From contig JAGRAN010000032.1 in the NCBI GenBank assembly GCA_020434585.1, forward strand, positions 11,013 to 75,012: a stretch of 64,000 nt of DNA, given 5' to 3'. The translations under genes and the position numbers were made by a program. Shown here in pieces: positions 1 to 28,142 of this stretch (the first letter of the stretch is position 1; each line of letters begins with the position of its first letter). The notes beneath the pieces were generated by a model. It worked only from the letters and a program-made list of their open reading frames with translations, had not been told where the DNA came from and made no database searches. This DNA is from Bdellovibrionales bacterium. GTDB lineage: Bacteria > Bdellovibrionota_C > UBA2361 > SZUA-149 > JAGRAN01.

Positions 1-465
1 AATACCTCAAAACCAGGACGGGAGGCTTCTAACCCCAAAGTTCTCCCGTCCATTTCAATTTTTTGTGAAGGTGATTTTGTTTGCTAACGATTTTCCAACG
101 CGAGCGTGCCTCCTGGGCGACGGCTACATGGACAGTAAGCCTGTAATGATAGTGTCAGTCGACCAGGGGGCCTTTTTCCACATTAATTGCACACCTGCTG
201 CTTGACTAATTTCTCTAGTCGCGCAATTGTTGCAGTGCCGCGTTGGAGCTTCGGCTCCTTGAAATTAGTCCTTCGCTGCACATTTTCTTTGCAGCAAATT
301 CCGACAACATATTTTCTGTGTTTCGTGCACGGCTTTGCCGTTTTTTCGGCTAAGCCGTGACGACGAGTCATGGTTTTATTCTCGTTTCTTCACAGCTTTA
401 GAAAGGGCGTCCGCTGCAGTGATGCATAGCATTACTTCGGCGGGCGTACCTTTTGGCAATGGGCT

Positions 466-1257
466 ATGAGGAATCCTGCGCTCTTTAACCCTGACCTGAA
501 CGATTCAGGTCAGACAGCAGAAAGGCTTGCAATGTATCGGATCACGGCAATCTTGGTGCTTCTGGGGGCCATGTTCACCATGGTGCTCAGCGGCTGTGCG
601 TCTCACGAGGTTACGATCGAAGCGGACGGGCCGTTCGGCATCCATCTCCGCTTCACCTTCACCCCGATTCCGACGTGCGGCGAAGGTGCGAGTCCCATCG
701 GCTGGACCAAGCACGAGGGCAAGTGGTACCAGGTGTACGACACCGATGGCGACGGAATCGGCGACTGCGTGGTTGGTCCCGATGGTCAGGCCTACGCGAT
801 CAAGGTGCTCGAGGGGGATCCGGCTTCGCTGCCGATCTACCCGACCAAGCACTACATCAGCGGTCTGATCAACGTCGATACCCGGATGATCGAGCGCGCG
901 CATGAACCCGGCTGGTATGCCGGCCTGATCGCGCAAAACGGCATCGACATCCTCGAGTTCGATCCGTCGAGCACCTTCATCGACATCCAGATCGGTTTCG
1001 CTCCGGGCACGGTTCTGCGCGCGCCGGGCGAGTACGGACTCGATGCCGGCACCGAACTCGTTGCCGTCGGAGGCGACGCTGTTCAGCTCTACCGCTTCCA
1101 GGGTCAGGCCGCTGATGTCTACTGGATGCTGCGTGACAGTCTCGGCTTCGAGGACGTCACGCTCCAGACCGAGCACGGTCCGTTCCACTTCGACGGTGGC
1201 GTGGACGAGGTTGCCTTCTCCTGGCACGAGGCAACCCTCGCCGTGGAACGCCGCTAG
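466..1257 (+). CDS. Hypothetical lipoprotein in a GC-rich island
   Basis: N-terminal signal peptide with a lipobox (LSGC) after a hydrophobic helix. Codon third positions are heavily G/C. No recognisable catalytic motif. Confidence 0.5.
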   Translation: MRNPALFNPDLNDSGQTAERLAMYRITAILVLLGAMFTMVLSGCASHEVTIEADGPFGIHLRFTFTPIPTCGEGASPIGWTKHEGKWYQVYDTDGDGIGDCVVGPDGQAYAIKVLEGDPASLPIYPTKHYISGLINVDTRMIERAHEPGWYAGLIAQNGIDILEFDPSSTFIDIQIGFAPGTVLRAPGEYGLDAGTELVAVGGDAVQLYRFQGQAADVYWMLRDSLGFEDVTLQTEHGPFHFDGGVDEVAFSWHEATLAVERR

Positions 1258-1264
1258 CAGCACC

Positions 1265-2011
1265 ATGCTTCGTCGCATGATGTTGCTGAGCGTGTGGGGG
1301 GTGCTGCTGCTTGCAGCGGCACCCCCCAGCTGTCGCAGCGCTGAGCAACAGGCTCTGCAACAGTTTGATGCAGTCACGTTTGAGCCGCTGTCCGATGAAA
1401 AGTGCCTAGGAATTGAGCGCCTCAAGCGTAGTGTCCTGAGGGTGTGGAAAAGTGACGGCGTATTCAGCGCAGTCTGTCTTGGCGAGTTCGAGCTCCTAGC
1501 CGCAGGCCACTCGCTCCGCGGTTTGGAGGTGCCAACTGAGCTCTACGTTGCACAGGTCATTTCCTATCCCGACGACGTTGCAGCAGGGTCCGTGATGCTT
1601 GACCAGGTGAGAGTTGGTCCCGAGGACGGCGAGCGTTCGTCCGATTGGGGATACGTGCGAACCGCCAAGCCGCTGGACGCACTTCCCGCAAGGATCAACA
1701 CCGAGCTTCATCTTGTTTCAGGTCAAGAAGTGGTGCTAGTAGGCTATCCGATGGCTCACGATGGTCACGCGCTTCACTCTGTGTCTGTTGTTCGGGCGAG
1801 AGTGAGCGATGATCGGGGTTCGGTGCTCACACTAGTCGGCCCCAAAGAGTGGCGGCATCCGTTGTCCGGTTTGTCCGGCGGAGCTGCGGCATTCTGGGAT
1901 GAATCGCTTGGGGATTACGTTGTCTTCGGGGCATTTTCCGCAACCCGCTGCTCAGAAGCACTCGATGACTGCGTGTATCTTGTAGTTCGTCCGCCTGTTC
2001 CGTTTGACTGA
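1265..2011 (+). CDS. Secreted trypsin-like peptidase domain protein (tentative)
   Basis: In-frame ATG at 1265 gives a signal-peptide-like N-terminus (MLRRMMLLSVWGVLLLAAAP). The ORF track's 1043 start overlaps the upstream gene. Motifs AAGHS and GLSGGAA resemble the His and GxSGG blocks of S1 peptidases but are degenerate. GC-rich. Confidence 0.4.
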   Translation: MLRRMMLLSVWGVLLLAAAPPSCRSAEQQALQQFDAVTFEPLSDEKCLGIERLKRSVLRVWKSDGVFSAVCLGEFELLAAGHSLRGLEVPTELYVAQVISYPDDVAAGSVMLDQVRVGPEDGERSSDWGYVRTAKPLDALPARINTELHLVSGQEVVLVGYPMAHDGHALHSVSVVRARVSDDRGSVLTLVGPKEWRHPLSGLSGGAAAFWDESLGDYVVFGAFSATRCSEALDDCVYLVVRPPVPFD

Positions 2012-2063
2012 AGCTGCAGGCACAACTCTCTCCCCTCCGAGTCCTGGAGTAATCCAGGGCGGC

Positions 2064-2103
2064 CCCCTCCTTCCGCAAGGAAGGAGGGGTGCTTATTTTC
2101 TTA
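2064..2103 (+). terminator. Rho-independent terminator after the 1265..2011 CDS
   Basis: Perfect 11-bp stem (CCCCTCCTTCC / GGAAGGAGGGG), loop GCAA, then a T-rich run (TGCTTATTTTCTT). Confidence 0.7.
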
Positions 2104-2205
2104 GCGTTTGTTCTCGTCGTCACGGACTTAATCATCTATGGCCCGTATTTGTTTCCTCGCTGATTCAGATTATAACCTTAGCGACTGAAGAACGGAGATA
2201 CTTAT

Positions 2206-2604
2206 ATGAATAAAGAATTAAAGATTGAAGCTGTGATGCACCCGTTCCCGCACACTGTCGGTGCCGATCAATCATTGCAGATTGCAAGAGATTTAATGAG
2301 TGAGCATGAAGTGCGACACTTGCCGGTTCAGAAGGCCGGTAAACTAATCGGAGTAATTAGCGATCGCGACATCAACTTTGCGCTCGCCGTCGATAAGACG
2401 GAGGCCGAGGATGAACACGTAGAAGATGCGTTTACCGAGGAGCCATATGTGGTTGAGCCAACGGAGCCGGTATATCGTGTCGCACGTCGAATGGCAGCAG
2501 ATCATATTGGCTGCGCGTTGGTAGCGAAGGGTGAGAGCCTAGTTGGAATCTTCACTACAGTTGATGCTTGCAGAACTCTGGCGGATCAATTGTCTGGAGA
2601 GTAG
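2206..2604 (+). CDS. CBS-domain protein
   Basis: 132 aa with tandem CBS-like segments (HLPVQKAGKLIGVISDRDI ... GCALVAKGESLVGIFTTVD). RBS-like GAAGAACGGAG upstream. Confidence 0.7.
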   Translation: MNKELKIEAVMHPFPHTVGADQSLQIARDLMSEHEVRHLPVQKAGKLIGVISDRDINFALAVDKTEAEDEHVEDAFTEEPYVVEPTEPVYRVARRMAADHIGCALVAKGESLVGIFTTVDACRTLADQLSGE

Positions 2605-2637
2605 GCAGTAAGATAGCACTGGTCGGTCGTCGAAAAG

Positions 2638-4356
2638 CTATGACAACAGACCTCGCAATAAAGCGTTTGCGCCGACTCTAAGGTTCCGGAGTGAGTATCC
2701 GCCTTCCTGCACAATAAGCAGCGGTACGCCAACGGACGAGAACATTTGGCCTATGCTGCGCATTCCGTCACGGCTAATGTCGAAAGTGCCGGTCGGGTCG
2801 CCGCTCATGATGTCGTAGCCGAGCGACAAAACAAAATACTTAGGCTTAAATTTAGCGATGGAACGCAGCGCAGCCTGGAGCGTTTTTAAATAAAGCGCGT
2901 CGTCCACGGGAGGAAACAACGGGTAGTTCCGGTTGTATCCTTGACCTGGGCCTTTTCCAGTTTCGTCCTCAAAGCCGCAAAAATAAGGATAGGCTTGCCT
3001 CGGGTTTCCATGAATCGAAACTACGTAAACATCTTTGCGTTCGTAGAAAATATTTTGAGAGCCGTTGCCGTGATGGTAGTCGATATCAAGCAGTGCAACC
3101 TTGGCGTCCTTAGACAGATACTCTGCAGCTACTGCGGCGTTGTTGAAGTAGCAAAATCCACCAAATGCGCTCTTTTCTGCATGGTGACCTGGTGGTCGGC
3201 ATAATACATAGCAGCGCTGTGAGCCGTTCTTGATTAAGGATGCTCCAGTTAGTGCAGCGTCTACTGCGAGTCGCGCAGCTTTGTAGGCATTTCGAGTTAC
3301 AGGCGTAAAGGTGTCCAGACAGAAATATCCAGCTCGCATTTCCCAAGTGCGCGGAAGCCGGCGCTGCTGACGCAGAGGAAATACATTTGGGTAAACGAGT
3401 CGATCCGGAGAGAGTTCGTCCTGCGCTTCTCGAAGGAAGTGCACCAGCTTTTTATCGTGAATCGCAGTTATGTATTTTTCGCCAAAGTGACGCAGCGGAT
3501 GCTCCTTGTACGAGATATCGTGCAGCCCGCGCAAGATGGCACTAACTCTTGCAGGCCTCTCAACATACCCGCGCTCTTTTAAGTGATGTATCTGATGAGA
3601 ATCACCGGAGCAAACGATGTCAATTGAGAGCCGAGTGGGGGCTTTTGCCTTCCGATTTTTTAACCCGGAATATAGCGGGGGCCGAAGCTGAATAGGGTCG
3701 TCTTTCACAGACTTGACGATCGCTCGAAGTGTTGGGTCGCTGCTGGGCATCTGTGCCTTTGCGCCAAGTATGCAAGAGATCGTCGCCTGCACTTCCGCCC
3801 GAGACGGGTTTTTACCTTGGTCGAGCGAATCGTAAACCAAAAACGTAACGTAGCCTTGGTTTCCCTTATGCGCTTTTTTTTCGTAAGCGGTGTTAACTAT
3901 CGGACGCGCGCCAAAGCGTTCATAAAATTCCAGCCGCCGCTTGTTCATGGCGAGACGCTCGGGTTCTTTTAATAGCTCCGGAGCGTCAGGTGGCACGTCC
4001 ATGAAGATGCCGATACAAGGTTTGCGCCGAAAGTGTTCGCGAGTGGCTTCGTAAACCGCCGCGCCGTAACCCCGCTTCTTCCTAGCAGGGTCAGCAGCAA
4101 GGTAATCGAGGTAGGCGGCTTTGGCCTCCGGAAAGTAAAACGATAGACTGAATCCTAGTATTCGTTCTTTTGGCCCTTCTGCTACGAGCAGTACTGGTTC
4201 GAAGGTCTTAGAGTCCGGTTCTCGAAACAAGTCGGCAATCTTGGCGGCGTACTCGGGATAGTAGGAAAACGCACGACGGTAAATGCGAAGAACCGCTGCG
4301 AACAGCTTTTGTTCTTCGCGACGAATTGGGCTGTAAATTTGGCGAATTCTAAACAT
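2638..4356 (-). CDS. Fusion protein: N-terminal GNAT-like acetyltransferase + C-terminal histone-deacetylase/acetoin-utilization (HDAC/AcuC/AphA) family deacetylase
   Basis: The C-terminal half carries canonical HDAC-family motifs (GFCYFNNAAVAA, DIDYHHGNGSQ, SLGYD). The N-terminal ~170 aa contain a GNAT motif-A-like RGYGAAVY / acetyl-CoA-binding pattern. Confidence 0.7.
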   Translation of the reverse strand: MFRIRQIYSPIRREEQKLFAAVLRIYRRAFSYYPEYAAKIADLFREPDSKTFEPVLLVAEGPKERILGFSLSFYFPEAKAAYLDYLAADPARKKRGYGAAVYEATREHFRRKPCIGIFMDVPPDAPELLKEPERLAMNKRRLEFYERFGARPIVNTAYEKKAHKGNQGYVTFLVYDSLDQGKNPSRAEVQATISCILGAKAQMPSSDPTLRAIVKSVKDDPIQLRPPLYSGLKNRKAKAPTRLSIDIVCSGDSHQIHHLKERGYVERPARVSAILRGLHDISYKEHPLRHFGEKYITAIHDKKLVHFLREAQDELSPDRLVYPNVFPLRQQRRLPRTWEMRAGYFCLDTFTPVTRNAYKAARLAVDAALTGASLIKNGSQRCYVLCRPPGHHAEKSAFGGFCYFNNAAVAAEYLSKDAKVALLDIDYHHGNGSQNIFYERKDVYVVSIHGNPRQAYPYFCGFEDETGKGPGQGYNRNYPLFPPVDDALYLKTLQAALRSIAKFKPKYFVLSLGYDIMSGDPTGTFDISRDGMRSIGQMFSSVGVPLLIVQEGGYSLRNLRVGANALLRGLLS

Positions 4357-4557
4357 GAATGTCAGCCGCGGCTAAACACGGTTTTACGATTACAACAGTT
4401 GTATAAAGTTCCAAGCTTCGGTGCAAGGAGATCGACTGAAAGGAGTCCAAATGGTTGGCGGACCGGGAGAGTGTTTTTGCTAATCTAACCTCACTTGGTT
4501 TGTCCGCCATAAAGCGCTGCAGTCCGGTTTCCCGAACTGCAGCGGCTTCATTCTGAC

Positions 4558-5067
4558 TTACTTATCCGGCTTCTCTCCGACCTCGGGAACTTCGGCGTCG
4601 AAGCGGCTGCGCGCAGCTTCATTCTCGGCCTGGTTCTCGAGCTGCATGCGCCGCGCCTTCTCCTCGAGGGATTCGGTCTCGACGCTGCGATGCTCGATCG
4701 AATCGGCGTTCTCGATCAGACTGCGAAGTCGCTGTTCGCGCTCTTCGACGATCGGGCTCGAGATGTCCGTCTGCCGACGAGTGACGATCTCCCACTGGGT
4801 GAGCATGATGGCGCCCAGCCACAGCAGCAGCATCGCTACGACGCTGACGATCGGGAACCCAGGTACCTTTACCGCCGCTTTCGCGCCGGAGTCGTCATCG
4901 GCCAAGCGCTCCTGGGCACGCAGCGCGTCGTAGCGCCGCTTGAAGTACCCGAAGATGCGTACCTTGACGAAGTACCAAGTGACGATCACCAGGACTGCGA
5001 ACAGTCCGATCTTGATCCAGGAGTAGGTGAGGAACTCCAGGATCGACGAATCGTTCATCATGTTCAT
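4558..5067 (-). CDS. Hypothetical membrane protein (single or double TM, acidic coiled tail), co-oriented downstream of the SPFH gene
   Basis: Two hydrophobic helices (IGLFAVLVIVTWYF; IVSVVAMLLLWLGAIML) followed by a charged Glu/Arg-rich C-terminus. GC-rich island. Confidence 0.4.
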   Translation of the reverse strand: MNMMNDSSILEFLTYSWIKIGLFAVLVIVTWYFVKVRIFGYFKRRYDALRAQERLADDDSGAKAAVKVPGFPIVSVVAMLLLWLGAIMLTQWEIVTRRQTDISSPIVEEREQRLRSLIENADSIEHRSVETESLEEKARRMQLENQAENEAARSRFDAEVPEVGEKPDK

Positions 5068-5103
5068 GATGCTCCCTTCTGATGTTGCGAAGACAGGCGG
5101 GCC

Positions 5104-6063
5104 TTACTTGCCCTCCTGCTGCTGGGTGGCGGCGGGCTCCGGCTGGAACGCGTTGTTCGTGATGCCCATCAGCATCGCCGGGTTCTTAAGCGCTTCGTCG
5201 TCGATGATGAACACCTTGTTCGGCGAGGCCGCGAGGGTCTCCATCACCTTGATCATGCGCTGCGTGACGAACGCGGGAGTGACTCCCTCAGCCAGCTTCT
5301 GGTTGACCAGAACCTGGGTTTCGGCCTCGACGAGGTCGACCTCCTGCTGCTTACGCGCGACCTCTAGGGCGGCGTCGGCCTCCGTCAGCTTCACGAGCTT
5401 GTCGGCCTCGGCTTCCTTGATCTCGATCTCGCGCTTCTTCGCCGCCTCCTGGGCATCGATGATGACCTGGGGCGGGTCGACATTCGCCAGAGCGAGCACG
5501 GTCGCATCGATCGGCGTCTCGGCGAGCTTCGCCTGTACCGCTGCGTGAATCTCTTGCGAGACCGCGTCGAGGTTCGAAAGCACGTGCTCGATCGTGTAGT
5601 GCGTGATCACGTGTCGCGCCGTGGTCCGCACGATCTGCTGGGCGTAGGTCTCGTACACCTTCTCGAACGAGATCTGGTGAATGCGGGCGTCGTTGGTCGA
5701 AGCCGCCTCCAGTCGATCGAAGATGATGTTGACCCGTTCCTCCGCCCCCGAGATGGAGAACGTTCCGCGCACGTCGAAGGCCAGCTTGAGCTGATCCTCC
5801 GGCATGAACACGGTCATCGGCTCTTCCACCATGTTGTCAGACACGGCGGTGAGAACGAGGTGCGCCGGCGCCATCGGGTTGACCGGCAGACGGAAGGTGG
5901 ACGGCTGTTTAAGCTCGTCCTGAAAACCTTGAGAGGTTTTCACCTTGCCGACGTGCGCGGTCGGGACCTCGACCTGCTTGCCGCAGCCGGTCAGGGCGAT
6001 CGCACCTACCAGGGCACACAGGACGGCGCTGCCACGAACGAATGAAGAACGCTTGTTTCGCAT
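5104..6063 (-). CDS. SPFH/band-7 (stomatin/prohibitin/HflK-like) lipoprotein
   Basis: Start refined to the in-frame ATG at 6063 (MRNKRSS..), giving a signal peptide plus lipobox LTGCG. The central SPFH-like region is followed by an Ala/Glu-rich coiled coil (EIEIKEAEADKLVKLTEADAALEVARKQQE). GC-rich. Confidence 0.65.
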   Translation of the reverse strand: MRNKRSSFVRGSAVLCALVGAIALTGCGKQVEVPTAHVGKVKTSQGFQDELKQPSTFRLPVNPMAPAHLVLTAVSDNMVEEPMTVFMPEDQLKLAFDVRGTFSISGAEERVNIIFDRLEAASTNDARIHQISFEKVYETYAQQIVRTTARHVITHYTIEHVLSNLDAVSQEIHAAVQAKLAETPIDATVLALANVDPPQVIIDAQEAAKKREIEIKEAEADKLVKLTEADAALEVARKQQEVDLVEAETQVLVNQKLAEGVTPAFVTQRMIKVMETLAASPNKVFIIDDEALKNPAMLMGITNNAFQPEPAATQQQEGK

Positions 6064-6561
6064 CGATTGCTCCTTGTTTGGACTTGCGAAAAACGAACGC
6101 ACCAAGAGGATACGCACCTCCAGGCACGGGAACCTTCAGGGACTAGAATGTCCACAAGTACACTCTCCCGGTTCCGTAAGTGTGCTTACGCGAACGGGTA
6201 CCGTTTCCCGTTAAGAGAAAGAACAAAATGCAAAATGTGAGTACGCAACGACCGGCAGGTGCGAGCCCGGTGGTTAACAAGCATTCATTTGCCGTTGCTA
6301 GGTGCGTCGGGAGGAACGGCTGACACAGTTGAGCGGAGTTTGTTCGCGCCCAGCTGAAAGGGATGTGTTGAGTTTAAGTATCGGAAATAGGCAATTCTTA
6401 ATCAAGGGGCTTGGTAAAATAATTTTAACAACCAAGCTTTGAAGATAGTGTTCAATAAGATAACGACAAAACTATAGTTTCGTTTGAGTCGTAGACATTG
6501 TATGGGATAGAAGCGACTACATAAGCGTTGCGGCGCAGCATAGCAGCTTAGAGTTAATTTT

Positions 6562-7323
6562 ATGATCAACGGTAAAACCATCGCGGTGGTTCTGCCCGCA
6601 TACAACGCGGAACAGAGCCTAAAACAGACCTTCGATGAGATCCCCAAAGATGTCATTGATATCGTTCTTTTGGTTGACGATTGCAGCAGTGATCAGACTG
6701 TCGAAGTTGCGAAATCCCTTGGAATAGCAACAATTCGTCACGAGCAGAATAAAGGCTACGGTGGTAATCAGAAAACGTGCTATCGAGAAGCAATCCGGCG
6801 TGGAGCCGATATAGTTGTCATGCTTCACCCGGACTACCAGTATTCGCCGAAACTACTAACGCCAATATCCGCTATGCTTGCCTACGGGGAATACGATGTG
6901 GCTCTGGGGTCTCGCATCTTGGCTCAAAGTGCAACGAAGCGAGGCATGCCTTACTACAAATATTTCTCAAATCGTGTGCTTACATTTCTTCAAAACATTG
7001 CGCTTGAAAGCAAACTCTCGGAATTTCATACAGGCTACAGGGCGTTCACCAGGCAAGTTCTTGAAACTCTTCCTCTTGAGGAAAATTCGGACGATTTCGT
7101 TTTCGATAACGAAATGCTGGCGCAAATCATTTGGTTCAATTTTCGGATCGGAGAAGTAAGTTGTCCTACCAGATACGCCGCGGAAAGCTCTTCAATCAGT
7201 TTTAAACGTAGCGTTGTGTACGGACTAGGGGTGCTTCGCGTAAGCGCTAGCTATCTGCTTCAAAAATACTGCTCAATGCAGTTCTCAATCTTTAGTGCGG
7301 AAGGAAAAAAACTCACTAAGTGA
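6562..7323 (+). CDS. Family-2 glycosyltransferase (dolichyl-phosphate sugar synthase-like)
   Basis: N-terminal GT-A signature (IAVVLPAYNAEQSL ... VDDCSSDQT ... NKGYGGN ... HPDYQY). 253 aa. Confidence 0.8.
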   Translation: MINGKTIAVVLPAYNAEQSLKQTFDEIPKDVIDIVLLVDDCSSDQTVEVAKSLGIATIRHEQNKGYGGNQKTCYREAIRRGADIVVMLHPDYQYSPKLLTPISAMLAYGEYDVALGSRILAQSATKRGMPYYKYFSNRVLTFLQNIALESKLSEFHTGYRAFTRQVLETLPLEENSDDFVFDNEMLAQIIWFNFRIGEVSCPTRYAAESSSISFKRSVVYGLGVLRVSASYLLQKYCSMQFSIFSAEGKKLTK

Positions 7324-7331
7324 TCTGGCTG

Positions 7332-8420
7332 TTATTGGGGAGAATTGTCGTTTGTGGCGACCTGTGTACTTCCTGGGGTTGATGAAAGCGGATCGTTTGA
7401 GCCAGGTCTGATATCTACTCTACTTTTAAATAGCTCGCGAATTCTCAGTTCCCCCGGAATAAGCTGCTCGCGTGCTAGCCAATAGTAAATTTCTTCAGCC
7501 GCAATCCGATGTCCGATTTCGTTAGGATGAAAATCGGTACCGACAATCGTCTGCATTCGGTCCAGGGGGAGTCCGAAGTACGCGGAGAGCAAGTCCAGCG
7601 TAAGAATATTTAGCTGTCTTAAAACTTGCTGCACCTTTGTATGAAGTTCGGTGAAGGGATAATTCTTGTCGAGCGGCATTCCGAAGAGGGGAAATATAAC
7701 TGCCACAACTTTGGCGCCATTGGTGGAGCCAATATCCGCGATAGATTTGAGTGCTCCGGTAAATTCGGCCCAATTCTTCTGATCGTCGAACAGTTTGTAG
7801 TAGTAATCGACGTAGGCTTGTCTTGTTTGATGATTGTGAATTCTCGTGGCGACGAAGTTTGCGAGTTTTGAATGTGACAATAGTCCTGTGCCTGTATCGC
7901 CAGAGCCCAGCTTAAAAGGATTAGTTCCACCTTTCCAAAGTCCGTGGGGTCTGAAAGGTTTGCGCTCTGGATCGTTTAAAGTAATTTCGACGATAATTAA
8001 ATCGGCACCGTCACGTTCGGCCGCGAACTTTGCACTTCTTATTTCGTGCATAGTTGAGTATCCGGGGACTCCGTAATTAAAAACTTCAGCGCGAATCGGG
8101 CTAACATTCAAATTAAGCATGCGTTCGAGTCTTTTGGGGAATGCGTCGTCGAATTGCATGTTTGGAGCGAAGGTAAACGAATCGCCGAGCACAGCTATGC
8201 GAAAAACACTGCCATCAGTATTCTTCGGTTCGATCGGATAGTCTTGGAAGAACTTCGACGCTTCGGGTTTGTAATATGCCTGCGGCCGGTCGTTTTTTAA
8301 GGTAGGAGTTCCGTCGTCGAAGGACCAAAAAGCGGCTTCGACAAGGCCGAGCACGACAAAAATAGACGCTGTGCACAAACTGATTGCGACAAGGCCGGAT
8401 TTTAAGGCTGAGTAAATCAC
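7332..8420 (-). CDS. Membrane-anchored SGNH/GDSL hydrolase family protein (paralog 1 of 4)
   Basis: N-terminal TM helix. Block I is RIAVLGDSFTF, block II Gly is NYGVPGYS, and the C-terminal DxxH catalytic block is DFHPNEIGH. Confidence 0.7.
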   Translation of the reverse strand: MIYSALKSGLVAISLCTASIFVVLGLVEAAFWSFDDGTPTLKNDRPQAYYKPEASKFFQDYPIEPKNTDGSVFRIAVLGDSFTFAPNMQFDDAFPKRLERMLNLNVSPIRAEVFNYGVPGYSTMHEIRSAKFAAERDGADLIIVEITLNDPERKPFRPHGLWKGGTNPFKLGSGDTGTGLLSHSKLANFVATRIHNHQTRQAYVDYYYKLFDDQKNWAEFTGALKSIADIGSTNGAKVVAVIFPLFGMPLDKNYPFTELHTKVQQVLRQLNILTLDLLSAYFGLPLDRMQTIVGTDFHPNEIGHRIAAEEIYYWLAREQLIPGELRIRELFKSRVDIRPGSNDPLSSTPGSTQVATNDNSPQ

Positions 8421-8621
8421 TAAACTAACACTGGTTTTTGGATGATTCCGCGCCGGTTGTTAGCCCCGGCTACCAGCGCGCGATTATATGATGAAGGGCG
8501 AATGTTTTCCAGGCCAATCCAAATTACGTCGCACAGGCAAGTTTATTGTGAATCCTGTAGCTACAGTCTGTCTATGCGCGTATAAGATACGAGAGCTTGA
8601 ACTTAGTATTGGACTGGAGCG

Positions 8622-9692
8622 ATGATCTGGAACTGGCTCGAATTTGGCTGTGTATGGATCGCTTGGTTCGGGCTTACCGGCTTTTGCGTGATTGCCGGCC
8701 GGAGCGATCTTATCTATTCAAGGCGCGTTCGCGAGTCAGTCGGCAACCTACTTTTGGTCATTTTCTCGTTTACGTTCGTGCTGTTCGCTGTGGAGAGCTG
8801 GTTTTTTATTTATCCGATTGCGGATGCCAGGATTTATAGCAAGACCGCCAGCAGATGGGGATATAAGTACTGGGGCGAGAAGAATTCGTTTGGATATAGG
8901 GACAGAGAATACACTAGAGATCGTTGTGGATCTGTTCCTTTACTCGCAGTAATCGGAGATTCGTTTGCAGCCGGATGGGGAGTCAAGGATCGCCGTGAAC
9001 GATTTGTGAATCTGATCAGAGACGCTCTTGAGCCGCAGATGGAGACGGTGCTGATCGGGGACTTAGCATGGGATTCTAAGAAAGAACTGGACGGGCTCAA
9101 GGCGTATCCGTGCAAGCCTGACGTAGTGATTCTCAGTTACTATTTTAACGATATTTTCAATGAGGCAGTGAGCCAAGGTGTGGTTGCAGCTCCTCAGCCG
9201 ACCCCGGCCCCAAAACTGCTTCGGCCCTTAGTCGATCATTTTTACCTATTTGATTTCGCGTGGACCATCTACGATCGCCGATTCGGAGGTCATAGCGGCG
9301 TAGTTGAGCTAATTGAAGCAGCGTTTAATTCGAAGGAAGTGTGGGCTGCTCACAAGCAACAACTGAAAGATATTGTGAAGTATACAAGAGACAACGAAAT
9401 AAAATTGATTACAGTAATATTTCCTGTGCTATCTGCGGTCGATGTGACAAGAAAGTTTGCGCATCAGGTAGCAGAAGTATTTGTGGAAGAGGGCATAAAG
9501 ACAATCGACTTGTCGTCTGAGCTATCGATGTATTCCCCTCGCCAGTTAGTTGTCAACGCGTTTGATAGTCATCCAAATGAATTTACCAATCGCTTAGTCT
9601 TTGAAAGCTTGAGTGAAGAACTTTTAAAATTAAAAGAAGAGAGCGCTTCTCGAGCTAGCGAGCCTCCCGCGCGATTTGTCGGTGAAATGTAG
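8622..9692 (+). CDS. Membrane-anchored SGNH/GDSL hydrolase family protein (paralog 2 of 4)
   Basis: Two N-terminal TM helices. Block I is LLAVIGDSFAAGWGV. The DxxH block is FDSHPNEFTN. Divergent from paralog 1. Confidence 0.7.
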   Translation: MIWNWLEFGCVWIAWFGLTGFCVIAGRSDLIYSRRVRESVGNLLLVIFSFTFVLFAVESWFFIYPIADARIYSKTASRWGYKYWGEKNSFGYRDREYTRDRCGSVPLLAVIGDSFAAGWGVKDRRERFVNLIRDALEPQMETVLIGDLAWDSKKELDGLKAYPCKPDVVILSYYFNDIFNEAVSQGVVAAPQPTPAPKLLRPLVDHFYLFDFAWTIYDRRFGGHSGVVELIEAAFNSKEVWAAHKQQLKDIVKYTRDNEIKLITVIFPVLSAVDVTRKFAHQVAEVFVEEGIKTIDLSSELSMYSPRQLVVNAFDSHPNEFTNRLVFESLSEELLKLKEESASRASEPPARFVGEM

Positions 9693-9700
9693 TCTTTGGT

Positions 9701-18501: not shown

Positions 18502-20083
18502 GAGTTTGTTTCTACTGCAGGCAGTGCTGCTGATTGGTGCAGCGACATACTGCTACGGGCAGCTTAATCCTGATGCAATTGCATACCTCCGTGTTGCCGA
18601 GCACATAATTTCCGGTGAGTTTGGCTTAGCCCTTAACGGCTATTGGTCTCCGTTGTTCAGTTGGCTGCTAGTGCCGCTGCTGCTTCTTGACGCAGACCCA
18701 ATATTCGCAGTTAGAGCGTTGATGGTCATTTCTGCATTAGCCTTCAGCGGAGGTGCATACCTCCTGTTTTGCGAGCTGCGGCTGAGCAGTAAAGTCCTGC
18801 ATGCATCCTTGCTCGGCACGATGCTATTGAGTGTTGCCTTGTCTTATTTTGCCGTTGCCCCGGATCTTTTGATGGCCGGTGGCTTTTTTGTTCTGCTGAG
18901 CCGCCTTATTCGGTCAGACTGGCTGCTCAATCGCAGTGTTGCGATGCAGTGCGGATTCGCAGCAGGGTTCTTGTATCTATGCAAGGCTGCCGCTTTACCG
19001 CTCACATTGGCCGTGCTTGTCGGTGTTTTGCTAATGCACTTCTGGCAGCAGAATGCGTCGAGCAAGCAGCTCCTTAAGTCAGCGCTATTTTTCGTAGCTG
19101 GAACTTCATGTGTCGCCGGGCCGTGGATTTTAATTCTGTCCGTTCACTACGGGTATCCTACTATCTCCACGGTTGCGTCAATTGCACATGCGATTGAGGG
19201 GCCGTGGGACTACAGTCCGCACGGAGAAGTGATTCCAGGGTTCTCTGGAATTTTGATTCCCGAAGCCGGGCGATTGACGACGTGGGAAGAACCAAGTCTT
19301 CAGGACTTTCCTTATTGGTCGCCTTTTCACAGTTCAGCTCTTTTCAAGCATCAAATCTCTTCAATCGCAGTTAATGTGCGGCTTAATTTTGTTTACCTGC
19401 TTTTTTTAATTTGCGCCTTATGTGTCCATCTTCGTATTTATCGCCGAACCGGAAAAGTAGACTCGACTGCTTGGACAAGCATTGTCGTGGTGGGAGCGAA
19501 CGTTTTGGTTTTTCTCCCGACTCATTCAGCTTCGATAAGATATTTTCTTCCAGCAATTCCTTTGCTACTTGCAGCAGTTCTGAAGGCGTTATTCTATGTC
19601 ACTCGCCAAAGTGCTCCTACTTTTAAAATTAGCACGATGTATGCGGCGGCGATTTTGAGCACGGTACTGCTGCTCAAGCCGATTTACGGGATGACGCTGC
19701 GACCGTTTAACGGAGGAGTAGACTACTACCCCATCGGACTGAGGGCCCGAGGTTTGGCAGAGGAGCTGAGAGCGAAGGGTTTAGTTGGACCCATCGTAGG
19801 CGGGAACCCGCTAGGACTTTACTTGTCCTATTTTCTTCGACAGCCGTGGTATGGCGGAGCAGAAGGCTCGTCGATCGGAGACGTGGAAGCGGTTAATGCG
19901 TTGATTGTCATAGTTAACGAAACTACATGGAATAATCGATTACGGCGTTCTTTAAACAGGTCGGATTTTTTTTCGAAGTTTGAGACGAGCCAGACAAACC
20001 ATATGGATGATATTGGACTGCCTGAAGCTGCAATTTACATTGCGAAAAACGCAGATCGGGTCTTAATGGAGAGCCGTAGATGA
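18482..20083 (+). CDS. GT-C-fold membrane glycosyltransferase-like protein (PMT_2/ArnT-like; paralog A)
   Basis: 11-13 TM helices in the N-terminal two thirds plus a C-terminal soluble domain. The first extracytoplasmic loop, PDAIAYLRVAEHIISGEF, resembles the DExxY loop of GT39/GT83 enzymes and is shared with the 26666..28099 paralog. The stop overlaps the rhodanese start (ATGA). Confidence 0.5.
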   Translation: MTAPVAKSLFLLQAVLLIGAATYCYGQLNPDAIAYLRVAEHIISGEFGLALNGYWSPLFSWLLVPLLLLDADPIFAVRALMVISALAFSGGAYLLFCELRLSSKVLHASLLGTMLLSVALSYFAVAPDLLMAGGFFVLLSRLIRSDWLLNRSVAMQCGFAAGFLYLCKAAALPLTLAVLVGVLLMHFWQQNASSKQLLKSALFFVAGTSCVAGPWILILSVHYGYPTISTVASIAHAIEGPWDYSPHGEVIPGFSGILIPEAGRLTTWEEPSLQDFPYWSPFHSSALFKHQISSIAVNVRLNFVYLLFLICALCVHLRIYRRTGKVDSTAWTSIVVVGANVLVFLPTHSASIRYFLPAIPLLLAAVLKALFYVTRQSAPTFKISTMYAAAILSTVLLLKPIYGMTLRPFNGGVDYYPIGLRARGLAEELRAKGLVGPIVGGNPLGLYLSYFLRQPWYGGAEGSSIGDVEAVNALIVIVNETTWNNRLRRSLNRSDFFSKFETSQTNHMDDIGLPEAAIYIAKNADRVLMESRR

Positions 20084-20454
20084 ATTGGCCTTTAGTGTTG
20101 ATTTTGGCCAGCTTGGGGGCCTTTTTTCTGGTTTATTATTTGCGCCATCGGGGCGAGCGAAGCGACGAGCAGCTTAACGAACACTGGCAGCGTATCCAGC
20201 AGGGAGCGTTGATTCTTGACGTTCGCACAGCCCAAGAATTTTCTCAGGGGCATATTGAGGGAGCATTAAACATTCCGCATAACGAGATCGAGCAGCGGAT
20301 TGCGGAGCTCGGCCCTGACAAGTCGAGGATTGTCGTGGCCTACTGCGCGGTTGGCGGGCGTTCCGAAAAGGCGAAGCAGCAGCTGCTGGCCCACGGCTTT
20401 AAGCAGGTCTACAATGCTGGAGGATATATCGATTTGCTTAACAGCAAGAGCTAG
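20080..20454 (+). CDS. Rhodanese-domain sulfurtransferase with an N-terminal TM anchor
   Basis: Single rhodanese domain with active-site Cys loop (ILDVRTAQEFSQGHIEGALNIP ... VVAYCAVGGRS). N-terminal hydrophobic helix. Confidence 0.8.
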   Translation: MNWPLVLILASLGAFFLVYYLRHRGERSDEQLNEHWQRIQQGALILDVRTAQEFSQGHIEGALNIPHNEIEQRIAELGPDKSRIVVAYCAVGGRSEKAKQQLLAHGFKQVYNAGGYIDLLNSKS

Positions 20455-21259
20455 GTGGCGCAGCTTGTCGTACGAATTTATAGAAGATTACAGTCACTGG
20501 ATTTCGGCAGCGGCACTGATACTTCTGCTGTTTTGGGAAACCGCTGTACCTTTCTTTGCCAGCTTTTTTGCAAGTAAATCGGAGAGAGCGATCCACTGCG
20601 GAAGGAATGTTTTGTTGGGGCTGCTAAATGCCTTGATGATTTCCGGATTGTTTGTCGGCAGTTGGGTTTGGGCGGCTGAAACTTCAGAGAACATACACCT
20701 AGGCTTTTTCTATTTGCTCGGCCTCGATGGATGGATTCATGCCTGCTGCAGCATCCTGCTCATGGATTTCTGGACTTATTGGTGGCACCGGATGAACCAT
20801 CGTGTTGCCTTTTTCTGGCGCTTCCATCAGGTGCATCATTCCGACAGGAAAATGGACGTCACTACTTCGTATCGCTTTCATCTGGGAGAAATATTTCTCT
20901 CTTCGCTGTTTCGAACTGGGCTTATTTTACTTTTTGGAATTAAGTTGTGGCACTTAGCGGCCTACGAGGCATTTATGTTTCCGATTGTTATGTTTCACCA
21001 TGCCAACGTCGGTGTGCCCAAGGAAATTGATCGCCTGCTGCGGCTCGTTATCGTTACTCCGGAAATGCACAAGGTGCATCATTCAAACTTTCAGCCGGAA
21101 ACTGATTCAAACTATACTTCGATGCTCTCTATTTGGGATAGGTTGTTTCGCTCCTTTAAGCTGTCTTCCGACTCCCATGGAATTGCATTCGGACTGGAAG
21201 GGCCGGAGCGAGAACACAAAGCGCTCAACGAAATGCTAAAAGCGCCGTTCGGGTCTTAG
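20414..21259 (+). CDS. Fatty-acid hydroxylase / sterol-desaturase superfamily membrane protein
   Basis: Histidine boxes HRMNH, HQVHH, HHANV and HKVHH in a polytopic membrane protein. Start uncertain: ATG at 20414 overlaps the rhodanese gene by 41 bp; TTG at 20465 is an alternative. Confidence 0.7.
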   Translation: MLEDISICLTARARWRSLSYEFIEDYSHWISAAALILLLFWETAVPFFASFFASKSERAIHCGRNVLLGLLNALMISGLFVGSWVWAAETSENIHLGFFYLLGLDGWIHACCSILLMDFWTYWWHRMNHRVAFFWRFHQVHHSDRKMDVTTSYRFHLGEIFLSSLFRTGLILLFGIKLWHLAAYEAFMFPIVMFHHANVGVPKEIDRLLRLVIVTPEMHKVHHSNFQPETDSNYTSMLSIWDRLFRSFKLSSDSHGIAFGLEGPEREHKALNEMLKAPFGS

Positions 21260-22965
21260 TAAACCTGTTCGAAACTATTTAGTACCTGAAGGCCGAGTTC
21301 TCTGTTGTCTAAAGTATTGCTGTGAAGGCTGGGTTTCCAACTCCTCGAAGTTTCAATCCAGTAGCGTACTTTTGGAGCAGAGCCGCAGGTAAGAACGACT
21401 TTGTTAATCTCAGGGCTCGTAAGTTTCAGCTCAACTCCTTGGGACGGGCCGTGAATAGTGACCCTGAGGGGTCTCCTGGATAAATCTGGATTTGCTGCTC
21501 GCAGCAGTAGCTCTGCGTGATGGGTCTCTGGGCTGCAGTCGAGTGAGCCCGTTGACTGCTGCGTGCTCCAGCGAAAGAATTCACCATTGCTGCTTTTCTC
21601 CCAAGTGTAAAAGCCATACTCACCCGATGAGGCTTGCCATGCCGCACCGGCAGCTGCTGCAATCGAGAGAATGATTGTAGAGCTAAGTCGAATGCGGCTG
21701 TGTTCAACATTTAAGCAAGCAGCCATGACAATTGCAGTTAGAATGCTAACTTCATCAAATACCAAATGGGGACCGAAAAAAAGTAATATGACTAAACAGC
21801 TTAACGAGAAAATCGCTGGACTGAGGTAGTTTTGTTCATGGTCTTCGGGGCTGCTAGGACGGACATGGAGTGCAGCCAGCGCGAGAAGAAACAAACCAAG
21901 TCCGATAATTCCTGTTTCGGCCAGCAGGCCAATGTAAAAATTATTCGAATTGTCCGTCCAGGCACCAAGGTTATGGTTTAACTGTAAGCTGTAGAAGGGA
22001 GCCCACTCTGCGAAACGGTCGAAGCCAACACCAAAAAGAGGATTATCCTGCCAAATTTCAATACCGATTTTCCAGAAAACCAATCGAGTGTGGAATGTTT
22101 GTGCAATATTTAGAAAGCTAATCGCGTCCAGACCACGTCGGGCGGCTTCAGGCAGCATTAGAAGGGTGCTTTGATATGAATCGATTTGATACATACGAAG
22201 GTAATCGAGCAGCCCAACGGAACAGAAACCTATTAAAGTTAGCAGCAGCGTTGCTTTGCGCGAATGCGAATAGCAAAACAAGAATAAATAGAGTGCTGCG
22301 CCAAGGATGAAGCTGCGGGAGCCGGTAAGTGAAGCCGAATAGAGCAGGCAGCAGAGCGCAAGCAAGTACAGAATAGTTCCAAACCGATTCTGGGATGTAA
22401 AACCGTTCACGATGAACGGGAGCAGGAGTATCAAGAATATTCCTGCCGCATTCGGATCACTGAAAGTGCTTGTGTAACGTCCGAGTGAGTCCCAGTAGTA
22501 AGTTTGATTTGGAAGCATCAAACTGGTCAGGGTTCCGTTCTTCTGCAGATATCCGACCAATGCTGCGACGGGCAAAGCAGCAGCCATACCTTTCAGCGCA
22601 GACTCTCTGGCAGAAGCACTGTCAGAAAAGATTTTGAACAATATCGGGACAAGGGCGAAGCGAAGCAGATTCTCAAGACCTACCCAGTCGAACGTGCCGA
22701 AGTTTGGCAAAAATGCCAATTTCTCAAAAAAAACTTCGGCGCAGTAGGAAGCAGCGAGAAGGCTAAGCAGCGGTGCCGCCCATATGAGGTCTCCAAGTGT
22801 CCATCGCCGCTTTTCGGACAGCGCGAACACAATCGCAAGGATCAGCGCGGTTCCCGGGCCGAAAATCGTGAGCAGGGGGACTAGAAACCCGAAGAGTAGC
22901 GCTTTTAAGCTGCCAGCTCCTGAATCACCACCGTCTTCTGTCATTCCCAGGCTGTCCTCCCGCAT
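21256..22965 (-). CDS. Wzy_C-domain membrane protein (O-antigen ligase / PglL-type O-oligosaccharyltransferase family)
   Basis: About 12 TM helices. A characteristic Wzy_C block (YSASLTGSRSFILGAALYLFLF) is followed by a large periplasmic loop, then a C-terminal soluble domain. Its stop overlaps the convergent fatty-acid hydroxylase stop. Confidence 0.7.
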   Translation of the reverse strand: MREDSLGMTEDGGDSGAGSLKALLFGFLVPLLTIFGPGTALILAIVFALSEKRRWTLGDLIWAAPLLSLLAASYCAEVFFEKLAFLPNFGTFDWVGLENLLRFALVPILFKIFSDSASARESALKGMAAALPVAALVGYLQKNGTLTSLMLPNQTYYWDSLGRYTSTFSDPNAAGIFLILLLPFIVNGFTSQNRFGTILYLLALCCLLYSASLTGSRSFILGAALYLFLFCYSHSRKATLLLTLIGFCSVGLLDYLRMYQIDSYQSTLLMLPEAARRGLDAISFLNIAQTFHTRLVFWKIGIEIWQDNPLFGVGFDRFAEWAPFYSLQLNHNLGAWTDNSNNFYIGLLAETGIIGLGLFLLALAALHVRPSSPEDHEQNYLSPAIFSLSCLVILLFFGPHLVFDEVSILTAIVMAACLNVEHSRIRLSSTIILSIAAAAGAAWQASSGEYGFYTWEKSSNGEFFRWSTQQSTGSLDCSPETHHAELLLRAANPDLSRRPLRVTIHGPSQGVELKLTSPEINKVVLTCGSAPKVRYWIETSRSWKPSLHSNTLDNRELGLQVLNSFEQVY

Positions 22966-23142
22966 ACAAAGATATACACGAGCGTCGGTAAGCTCGTCTC
23001 CAATTCTTTCCGTGAACTTGGCTTAAGAAAATCTCAATTGTCTCGGCAAATTTGTCAGGTTTGCTTACTATAGCTTGATTTTTCCGGACAGTCGGTATTG
23101 CATAGGTCGGTCTGAGGTGCGCGGCTTAATTGGAGATTTCAA

Positions 23143-23949
23143 ATGCGACAGCTAGTCATCGGCATTTTGTCTATTTGTTTTGGGGTAGTCTTATTCGGAG
23201 CGAGCAGTGCTCAAGCTCAACAGAGTGTTGTTGAAGCGCGGCGCGGATCGTCTGCCGCAGTTGGGGAGGAGGAAGAGGACAGCAGGCCTTGGGGATTTCA
23301 GGTTAGCGCCGGCGTTTACTCAGACTACATGTTTCGCGGAAAAACCGTTTATCCGGGAACTTCAATCCAGCCTTCCGTAACTGGCTGGTATGATTTCGGG
23401 TCAATCGGTTCGTTGAGCTTTAACGTTTGGTCGCACCTGTCCGGGGAGACAGTCGAGCCACCCGAGAAATTTACCGAACTAGACACGACCTTTTCTTATG
23501 ATGTGACCGTTCTCGATTACGTTAACTTCGCAGCGGGATTCATCATGTATCGTTTTCCAGGTAAGTCGGGCAGGATTGCCGATACCAACGAATACTACCT
23601 TGGCCTCGGTGCTAATATTTGGGGTAATCCTACTGTCACTTTTTACAACGACTTCGATATCGGTCGATACCAGTATGCGACTCTCAGCTTCAAACAGCCG
23701 TTTGAGATTGAAGAGGTTGCTCCGGGTTTCGCGCTGATTCCTTACACAGCGTTTGGTTTCGCGTTTAACGCAAACGACGGACCAGTATTTTACGTTGATA
23801 ACGGCTTGGTTACCGTTGACGTCGGTCTGTTGGCTGATATTCCAGTTTGGGAGTTTACGTTGACTCCGAGCATCAACTACACGTTTGAAGCTGACGAAGC
23901 CAATAACAACGAATTCTGGTTCGGATTAGAGTTGAGCTACGCGATTTAG
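23143..23949 (+). CDS. Secreted protein, possibly an outer-membrane beta-barrel
   Basis: Signal peptide (ILSICFGVVLFGASSAQAQQS). Alternating hydrophobic/aromatic beta-strand-like pattern. Ends ELSYAI. Confidence 0.4.
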   Translation: MRQLVIGILSICFGVVLFGASSAQAQQSVVEARRGSSAAVGEEEEDSRPWGFQVSAGVYSDYMFRGKTVYPGTSIQPSVTGWYDFGSIGSLSFNVWSHLSGETVEPPEKFTELDTTFSYDVTVLDYVNFAAGFIMYRFPGKSGRIADTNEYYLGLGANIWGNPTVTFYNDFDIGRYQYATLSFKQPFEIEEVAPGFALIPYTAFGFAFNANDGPVFYVDNGLVTVDVGLLADIPVWEFTLTPSINYTFEADEANNNEFWFGLELSYAI

Positions 23950-25913: not shown

Positions 25914-26074
25914 TTTTCTCTCACAGCATGGGGGGAGCTATCCAGCTAAGAATAGACATTATATCCCTCGGCTTTCAAGGTGTCCTTTTATAAAAATAAG
26001 CCCTGAGTTACTTGAGCTTGTGAGAGATTTGATCAAGGATCAAGCGGCAATTCCGAAGGGAGGAGATTTGATAC

Positions 26075-26656
26075 ATGCTGAGGACACGTTCTAGTAAGTT
26101 TGCCGCACTTATTCTTGGTCTTATTGCAATCGCAGCGTGTATCGGCTGTCAGAGCGACAAGCTGACGACGATAGTTTTGTCGGGCAGGGCACTTTTCCCG
26201 CCGGAGTTTACCGGCTTGGGTGAGCAGGTTCCCGTAGCCAATACCGACTTTGCGGTGCTCGATCTAAGTCTCCCCGGTGACTCAAACGTGGTTGCGGTTG
26301 GCGTGACAGACATCGCCGGAAATTACTTCACACGAATCAACGCTACTCCATCAGTCGCGGTGGTTGTCCTGGGCGCCGTCCGGGTCTCTGGATTAATTGA
26401 TACTACCAGTTCATTTGTCGAGAAGGCCTTTGACGGGATCACTGACGTTGCTTGTGAGGCTGGAGTGACGGCGATAGGTGAGGGCAAAATCTTTCCATTC
26501 GAAATGGATGCCGAGCGAATTTCCAACCTTGAAGCTGGTGCCTTTATGGCTGTTCAGCAGATCGCAGTAGATTATACTGACAGTGATGGTTCGCGAACTG
26601 CCGCTGTTAACCTAACTAGGCAGCTGACCGATGACGGCGCTCATCCGCCGCTATAA
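26075..26656 (+). CDS. Hypothetical lipoprotein
   Basis: Signal peptide plus lipobox (IAIAACIGCQSD). 193 aa, no known motif. Confidence 0.4.
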   Translation: MLRTRSSKFAALILGLIAIAACIGCQSDKLTTIVLSGRALFPPEFTGLGEQVPVANTDFAVLDLSLPGDSNVVAVGVTDIAGNYFTRINATPSVAVVVLGAVRVSGLIDTTSSFVEKAFDGITDVACEAGVTAIGEGKIFPFEMDAERISNLEAGAFMAVQQIAVDYTDSDGSRTAAVNLTRQLTDDGAHPPL

Positions 26657-26665
26657 GTTAGGCAG

Positions 26666-28099: not shown

Positions 28100-28142
28100 A
28101 CCGCCATGAAATCAAACTTCTGACGTTATGTCTCGTCTAAGT

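Follow-up and report, generated by a model that had tools for sequence, protein, structure and literature searches.

The minus-strand gene at positions 2638..4356 of a 64,000-nucleotide stretch of contig JAGRAN010000032.1 from a Bdellovibrionales bacterium (the whole stretch analysed, referred to here as the window) encodes a single protein in which a GNAT module is followed by a zinc amidohydrolase domain related to the acetylpolyamine amidohydrolases (APAHs). Both folds are present, each with all of its catalytic and cofactor motifs, which are nearly invariant across many phyla. The function proposed for this fusion, which is given an even chance of being correct, is that of a bifunctional small-amine N-acetyltransferase and N-acetyl-amine amidohydrolase with a polyamine, diamine or beta-lysine-type substrate, and not that of a chromatin enzyme. 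We infer two active domains, whose targets would be small cationic amines and not histones.

The open reading frame (ORF) is complete, with an ATG start and 572 amino acids (aa) followed by a TAG stop, and is uninterrupted, showing no break between the two domains. Its product is 100% identical to an NCBI entry from a metagenome-assembled genome (MAG), 'histone deacetylase family protein [Bdellovibrionales bacterium]', and the N-terminus MFRIRQ is kept in homologues, indicating that the annotated start codon is right. The Pfam domain Hist_deacetyl was matched at aa 265-569 (238.8 bits, E=1.1e-70) and Acetyltransf_1 (CL0257) at aa 22-121, the latter with 24.1 bits in the whole protein and 27.2-27.6 bits when only the N-terminal part is scanned (curated cut-off 20.7 bits). 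A preliminary description, made from the sequence alone, had placed these two domains on one polypeptide at 2638-4356 and suggested a Pfam scan; this layout is borne out by the intact ORF, by the two matches above threshold and by the location of the strings that it quoted (RKKRGYGAA at aa 92-100, FNNAAV within CYFNNAAVAAEY and DIDYHHGNG at aa 424-432).

Residue conservation was scored in 44 aligned full-length homologues and in a set of 75 species copies. Both domains are under strong purifying conservation. The mean identity to the window protein is 39% in the GNAT core, 52% in the APAH-like domain and 18% in the linker between them (aa 226-243; 3628..3681, on the minus strand like all parts of the gene), which is variable and probably disordered, with a per-residue model confidence (pLDDT) below 50 at aa 231-242. 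The full-length AlphaFold2 model, which includes this disordered linker, reached a predicted template modelling score (pTM) of only 0.62, too low for a reading of the geometry between the domains.

The N-terminal module consists of the GNAT core (aa 1-176; 3829..4356) and a helical extension (aa 177-225; 3682..3828), which forms two helices with pLDDT above 90 and ends in S216..DDP..LR225. S216, P221 and R225 are invariant among homologues, and the extension is also kept in stand-alone GNAT genes of 236-239 aa. Motif A, the acetyl-CoA pyrophosphate loop (4057..4083), reads K93-K-R-G96-Y-G98 at its centre, with both glycines invariant. Motif B, NKRRLEFYERFGA (aa 138-150; 3907..3945), has the pattern N138-x6-Y145-E-R-x-G-A, in which Y145, which we take to be the putative general acid, is invariant and F144, N138 and E146 are at least 90% conserved. 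The fusion protein thus carries the two features by which a GNAT is recognised, the pyrophosphate loop (Q/R-x-x-G-x-G/A) and the motif B tyrosine. The acidic and aromatic residues Y82, Y102 and D124, located around the acceptor cleft, are invariant across all clades.

A profile built from 28 N-terminal sequences returned only GNATs among its significant matches (E<=0.03) to PDB sequences, the best being an aminoglycoside AAC (4e-6), GCN5 (4e-4) and RimI (6e-4), and the few non-GNAT chains appeared only near E=0.3-0.8. Acetyltransf_1 was matched by 26 of the 28 family members (best E=3.5e-11), and AlphaFold modelled aa 1-228 confidently (pLDDT 92, pTM 0.90), with the alpha/beta fold of GNATs. 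The preliminary description had called the N-terminus GNAT-like while allowing that it might have no acetyltransferase fold, and profile, Pfam and model all identify it as a GNAT. The module is best described as a presumably active, acetyl-CoA-dependent GNAT N-acetyltransferase with its core at aa 1-176 and a family-specific extension to aa 225. An NCBIfam scan of the fusion protein gave nothing significant for AblB, SpeG or other named GNAT equivalogs, and the module has no special closeness to SpeG, SSAT or Dpa; its best-scoring GNAT neighbours of known function are the protein acetyltransferases RimI, Naa and GCN5.

The C-terminal APAH-like zinc amidohydrolase domain (aa 244-572; 2641..3627) is the part matched by Hist_deacetyl. 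It contains RPPGHH (aa 387-392; 3181..3198) with the catalytic His-His dyad H391 and H392, DIDYHHGNG (3061..3087), GYDIMSGDPTG (aa 513-523; 2788..2820) with the third zinc ligand D515, and QEGGY (aa 550-554; 2695..2709) with the catalytic Tyr554, which equals the EGGY motif of APAHs. By homology to HDAC8 and APAH, D426 and H428 are presumably zinc ligands and D424 a monovalent-cation ligand. The RPPGHH, DIDYHHGNG and QEGGY motifs are invariant, as are D515, P521 and G523, and the full catalytic set of H391, H392, D424, D426, H428, D515 and Y554 is essentially invariant.

The best PDB sequence matches of this domain are the APAH entries 3q9b, 6phr, 9gkz and 3men (E=1e-62 to 1e-65, ~215-223 bits, aa 266-570), while single HDAC6, HDAH and HDAC4 domains reached ~110-118 bits (HDAC6 E ~1e-33) in alignments that begin only at aa 342-359. 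In a Foldseek search with the full model, the top 16 matches were all APAHs, with template modelling (TM) scores of 0.85-0.90 (on target) and 34-35% identity. The domain had been described beforehand as a histone deacetylase or acetylpolyamine amidohydrolase; PDB scores and Foldseek retain a deacetylase of the APAH lineage and set aside a histone or AcuC type.

According to Graf et al. 2024 (PMC11532494), APAHs form 'cluster 4', the sole bacterial cluster in which polyamine deacetylase activity was found, and their hallmarks are RPPGHH, EGGY, an extended L2 loop, an L1 lid and a PIS motif, RPPGHH being typical of robust deacetylases and APAH. The same paper reports that Glu106 of the M. ramosa enzyme (MrAPAH) binds the distal ammonium of the acetylpolyamine. 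In the window protein, the L2 region (aa 320-346) aligns only with APAH (residues ~86-113, with a 1-residue length difference). The counterpart of the L2 'polyamine-specificity' loop spans aa 326-346 (3319..3381) and includes R329, which is invariant and corresponds to MrAPAH R95, and E339 (nt 3340-3342), which corresponds in the sequence alignment to MrAPAH E106.

The fusion belongs to a large family. A protein search returned more than 100 full-length homologues of 570-580 aa with 47-85% identity and the same two-domain layout, many of them with both Pfam domains precomputed and labelled at JGI as 'AcuC-like enzyme/GNAT superfamily N-acetyltransferase', and a scan of one genome per species found a relative in at least 579 genomes. 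Carriers occur in Proteobacteria, Planctomycetota, Chloroflexota (Dehalococcoidia), Bacteroidota, Myxococcota, Gemmatimonadota, Nitrospirota, Spirochaetota and others, and include the cultured Maricaulis salignorans DSM 16077, Hyphomicrobium sp., Enhygromyxa salina, Singulisphaera and Tundrisphaera. The fusion of putatively opposing activities, initially regarded as unusual, is therefore a conserved arrangement in many phyla whose two domains were already labelled in databases. The individual domains are ordinary and their combination is visible in database annotation; the family itself is seemingly undescribed, as neither a GNAT-HDAC fusion nor an operon of KamA, ATP-grasp, GNAT and HDAC genes was found described in the full-text literature searched or in a targeted reading of Graf et al. 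2024.

With the N-terminal profile alone, a search of 1.84 billion representatives gave 466 clusters (50% identity) with E<=1e-10. Other arrangements include GNAT-HDAC-GNAT triple fusions (P0156, P0187), ATP-grasp domains fused to the same GNAT subtype (P0174, P0225) and true stand-alone genes for the GNAT module, which encode 236-239 aa and lie inside their contigs (L083:4001-4720, L084:4001-4711). One of the stand-alone genes is located near KamA (LAM_C) and Ddl-like (Dala_Dala_lig_C) genes, without any deacetylase. Because such stand-alone gene copies exist, the GNAT module is, on sequence grounds, an autonomous functional unit.

Average-linkage clustering separated the species copies into a clade of 22 that includes the window protein and a sister clade of the 53 others. 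The sister clade is distinguished by an operon: in 28 of its 53 copies, compared with 0 of 22 in the window clade, the fusion gene shares its strand with one or two neighbouring ATP-grasp ligase genes of the Ddl family. A KamA-family radical-SAM aminomutase is also encoded in 21 of these 28, usually together with a GNAT of ~160 aa and sometimes with a TetR regulator, whose gene is then the first. Operon carriers include Dehalococcoidia, Planctomycetota, Bacteroidales, Desulfobacterota and others (example loci L070:6185-11740, L062:6262-11761 and L027:8558-14346). The gene order differs between phyla, being either KamA-fusion-ligase-ligase-GNAT or KamA-ligase-ligase-GNAT-fusion, and this variation between loci argues for a functional link among the operon partners.

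The two clades also differ at position 339, which is acidic (Glu or Asp) in 18 of the 22 window-clade copies and in 5 of the 53 sister-clade copies, the operon clade having P, A, S or T in place of E. Restricted to loci flanked by at least 4 kb on both sides, the association between this residue and the operon gave a Fisher p=1e-4, a value that ignores shared ancestry and is descriptive only. The KamA-like protein of the operon aligns to the lysine 2,3-aminomutase structure 2A5H with 456 bits and retains D293 and D330, which we take to hold the epsilon-ammonium of lysine. Among the NCBIfam models it matches AblA best, with 493 bits, just under the equivalog cut-off of 525, and no AblB model matched either the fusion or the small GNAT. 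A partnership in which an aminomutase-like enzyme is joined by a GNAT and two Ddl-type ligases points towards a metabolite derived from beta-lysine, of which no description was found in the literature searched.

In the mechanism proposed here, the GNAT would acetylate a polyamine, a diamine or a diamino acid such as beta-lysine on one of its amino groups, and the APAH-like domain, joined to it by the flexible linker, would remove N-acetyl groups from the same metabolite family. The two activities would either address different nitrogens or pathway steps, protecting and then deprotecting, or be reciprocally controlled so as to buffer a pool of free amine. In the operon clade, where the fusion enzyme may work with the KamA-like enzyme, the two Ddl-type ATP-grasp amide ligases and the extra GNAT, protection would precede the ATP-grasp ligations and deprotection would follow them, much as in the acetyl protection known from arginine synthesis. 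For the window copy and the rest of the stand-alone clade, reciprocal regulation would buffer the pool of free polyamine or diamine, and E339, at the position of Glu106, may bind the distal ammonium of the acetylpolyamine.

Reversible N-acetylation of bacterial proteins and polyamines is normally split over separate enzymes, which raises the question of how the opposing activities are balanced. A family in which, across hundreds of species, a GNAT and an APAH-type deacetylase with intact active sites are joined for good provides a ready-made test case, and the cultured carriers make the question directly testable. The fusion could be a reciprocally regulated switch or buffer for free amines, or a protect-deprotect module bracketing a biosynthetic route. 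A bolder version, which is judged improbable, is that the fusion is a self-contained acetylation rheostat, in which a single amino group, on a polyamine or a protein lysine, would be the target of both domains under reciprocal control, for example by the acetyl-CoA/CoA ratio, and that in the sister clade this module would act at the start and at the end of a so far undescribed pathway that is based on beta-lysine and built by two Ddl-type ligases. If true, this would be the first single-chain writer and eraser of acetyl groups, an acetylation counterpart of GlnE, GlnD, AceK and HprK/P.

Several observations weigh against the proposed small-amine function. The PIS motif of APAHs is replaced in the fusion family by P521-T-G523, in which P521 and G523 are invariant and T522 is at least 90% conserved, and which sits, according to the alignment and Graf et al. 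2024 (PMC11532494), at the site of the 'PIS' gatekeeper of APAH and the 'PEG' gatekeeper of HDAC10. MrAPAH D163, Y168 and E117 correspond to S396, F401 and F350 in the window protein; at the position of D163, which in MrAPAH forms a salt bridge with R95, homologues mostly have R, while R329 is present. The counterpart of the L1 loop, whose hairpin in APAHs closes a head-to-head dimer, is ~7 residues shorter and modelled with low confidence (pLDDT <50). Since some hallmarks are kept (RPPGHH, EGGY, L2, R329 and E339) and others changed, the C-terminal domain is classed, from sequence and model, as an APAH-lineage enzyme with a remodelled substrate entrance and is not filed as a proven APAH. The lineage also leaves room for protein substrates, as PsApaH deacetylates peptides and AcsA as well (Graf et al. 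2024, PMC11532494).

Further points of this kind concern context and energetics. No conserved neighbours were found across the window clade, and 20 large ORFs scanned with Pfam, as far out as about 40 kb in the window, included no gene of polyamine or lysine metabolism, none being present within ~37 kb. With no informative neighbours, the substrate of the window copy rests on homology and one residue, E339; a polyamine or diamine is the most likely candidate, and this is the weaker step of the small-amine model. Action of both domains on the same nitrogen would be a futile hydrolysis of acetyl-CoA, for which reason different nitrogens or steps, or reciprocal regulation, are expected.

The fusion might instead be a single-chain writer and eraser of protein-lysine or N-terminal acetylation, its balance set by acetyl-CoA/CoA or another signal, in analogy to the separate AcuA/AcuC pair and to the bifunctional GlnE, GlnD, AceK and HprK/P. 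The closeness of the GNAT module to RimI, Naa and GCN5 and the activity of PsApaH on peptides and AcsA speak for this alternative. It is nevertheless considered unlikely, because the deacetylase groups with APAHs rather than with AcuC or class I enzymes and keeps the access-restricting L2 loop, because its neighbourhood contains neither a conserved protein partner nor a target gene such as acs, and because the sister clade places the fusion among metabolite-building enzymes (the aminomutase and the Ddl-type ligases) and a TetR regulator. It is also conceivable, although rather more doubtful, that only the deacetylase is catalytic and that the GNAT serves as a sensor of acetyl-CoA/CoA or of an acetyl-amine, gating the amidohydrolase allosterically. 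The invariance of Y145, and likewise of Y82, Y102 and D124 at the acceptor cleft in all clades, argues against a sensor, and the occurrence of the GNAT module as a stand-alone gene or fused to ATP-grasp without a deacetylase is hard to square with regulation of a deacetylase only.

The window derives from a MAG, in which adjacent genes could have been joined by an assembly or frameshift error. Such an artefact is virtually excluded here, since the same continuous frame is seen in over 100 independent full-length homologues (570-580 aa) and in the 75 species copies, some of which come from completely sequenced cultured strains (Singulisphaera, Tundrisphaera, Maricaulis, Hyphomicrobium and Enhygromyxa).

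Neighbouring genes were compared in 81 loci, in which ORFs were called crudely, as the longest ORFs with an overlap filter, and then clustered. The CBS-pair gene next to the fusion ORF in the window (2206..2604, plus strand; Pfam CBS E=2e-19) is convergent with it, with 33 bp separating the stop codons. Metabolite sensing through this neighbour had been suggested, but a CBS gene is adjacent to the fusion in 0 of the 80 other loci, which contain only three weak matches 3.8-6.6 kb away, and the CBS gene is listed as a neighbour only. Its role as a partner, and with it the analogy to AcuABC, was rejected on this basis and because the deacetylase is not AcuC-type. The upstream SPFH/Band-7 gene and the gene of a 169-aa membrane protein were likewise rejected as operon partners, as they recur in 0 other loci, differ in GC content and are separated from the fusion gene by a hairpin.

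This hairpin (4506..4557, minus strand; -33.4 kcal/mol, z=-7.2) follows directly after the stop of the 169-aa membrane-protein gene and has a perfect 12-bp GC-rich stem, a GAAA loop and further pairs beyond. It has no clear U-tract and was not reported by a terminator scan; its probable role is to set the fusion gene apart as a separate transcription unit, presumably by acting as a terminator. The window gene looks monocistronic, since its neighbours do not recur elsewhere and a stable hairpin follows the upstream gene. A sigma-70 promoter scan revealed no site near the fusion gene, tblastn found no homologues of KamA, ATP-grasp or TetR in the whole 64-kb window, and no acs gene is present in the neighbourhood of the fusion. 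At the Maricaulis and Haliea loci (L015, L016 and L038), a conserved protein of ~230-260 aa (cluster c22) is encoded divergently upstream of the fusion on the opposite strand, and a protein of ~550 aa (c6) is encoded nearby; both are clade-specific.

The first part of the window (1..10500) is a mosaic in GC content, which is ~0.61 at 500-2000 and 4500-6000, ~0.51 at 2000-4500, where the fusion and CBS genes lie, and 0.46-0.48 at 6000-10500. At 466..1425, where GC is high, both strands carry long overlapping ORFs; the two that were scanned, both on the plus strand, had no Pfam match. A gene cluster of surface-glycan type (6562..29327), interleaved with ORFs lacking a Pfam match, encodes a GT2 glycosyltransferase-family protein (6562..7323), GDSL/SGNH hydrolases (7332..8420 and 28143..29327), a fatty-acid hydroxylase (20300..21259), a Wzy_C O-antigen ligase-like protein (21256..22965) and PMT_2 (26666..28099), and a eukaryote-type Ser/Thr kinase is encoded inside its span (23946..25913). 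The window also encodes a 645-aa flagellin (13729..15666, plus strand), in which five FG-GAP-like repeats (E=2e-43) are located between the conserved N- and C-terminal flagellin helices, and a second flagellin of ordinary size (33424..34881, minus strand).

Among known systems, the bacterial APAHs of M. ramosa (3Q9B/3Q9C), Marinobacter (6PHR), Pseudomonas (PsApaH, 9GKZ) and Burkholderia (3MEN) are nearest to the C-terminal domain in both sequence and fold. They share with it the zinc-binding and catalytic residues, RPPGHH, EGGY, the L2 alignment and the equivalences R329=R95 and, in the window protein, E339=E106. They differ from it in being single-domain proteins of ~340 aa, whereas the fusion has a 225-aa GNAT module and a linker in front, and in the features of the entrance, where the fusion has PTG for PIS, does not conserve D163, Y168 and E117, and has a shorter L1; the fusion family also has its own invariant motif, C-x-D-T-F-T-P.

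The B. subtilis proteins AcuA (GNAT), AcuC (HDAC-type) and AcuB (CBS), which control acetyl-CoA synthetase, resemble the present case in pairing a GNAT with a zinc deacetylase, and the window also has an adjoining CBS gene. However, AcuC belongs to the class-I-like cluster 2c and not to the APAH cluster, the Acu proteins are separate rather than fused, and the CBS gene of the window is convergent, is not found in the other loci and has no acs gene nearby, so that the locus is not of AcuABC type. Opposite group-transfer steps within one pathway or one polypeptide are also found in ArgA/ArgE and ArgJ of arginine synthesis and in GlnE, GlnD, AceK and HprK/P. ArgJ is an Ntn-type enzyme and ArgE an M20 peptidase, with folds unrelated to those of the fusion domains, and to our knowledge none of these systems combines a GNAT with an HDAC-fold amidohydrolase.

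AblA and AblB, which form the compatible solute N-epsilon-acetyl-beta-lysine, are similar to the sister-clade operon in their KamA-family partner, and a GNAT acting on beta-lysine would mirror AblB. The operon differs from them in that its KamA-like protein stays below the AblA cut-off (493 against 525 bits), in having no AblB match and in adding two ATP-grasp ligases and a deacetylase, and the window copy, with no KamA homologue in 64 kb, is not of Abl type. The proposed chemistry of the fusion is paralleled where SpeG or SSAT, as the GNAT, is paired with APAH or HDAC10, as in these systems the acetyl-CoA-dependent N-acetylation of polyamines is likewise matched by zinc-dependent removal of the acetyl group.

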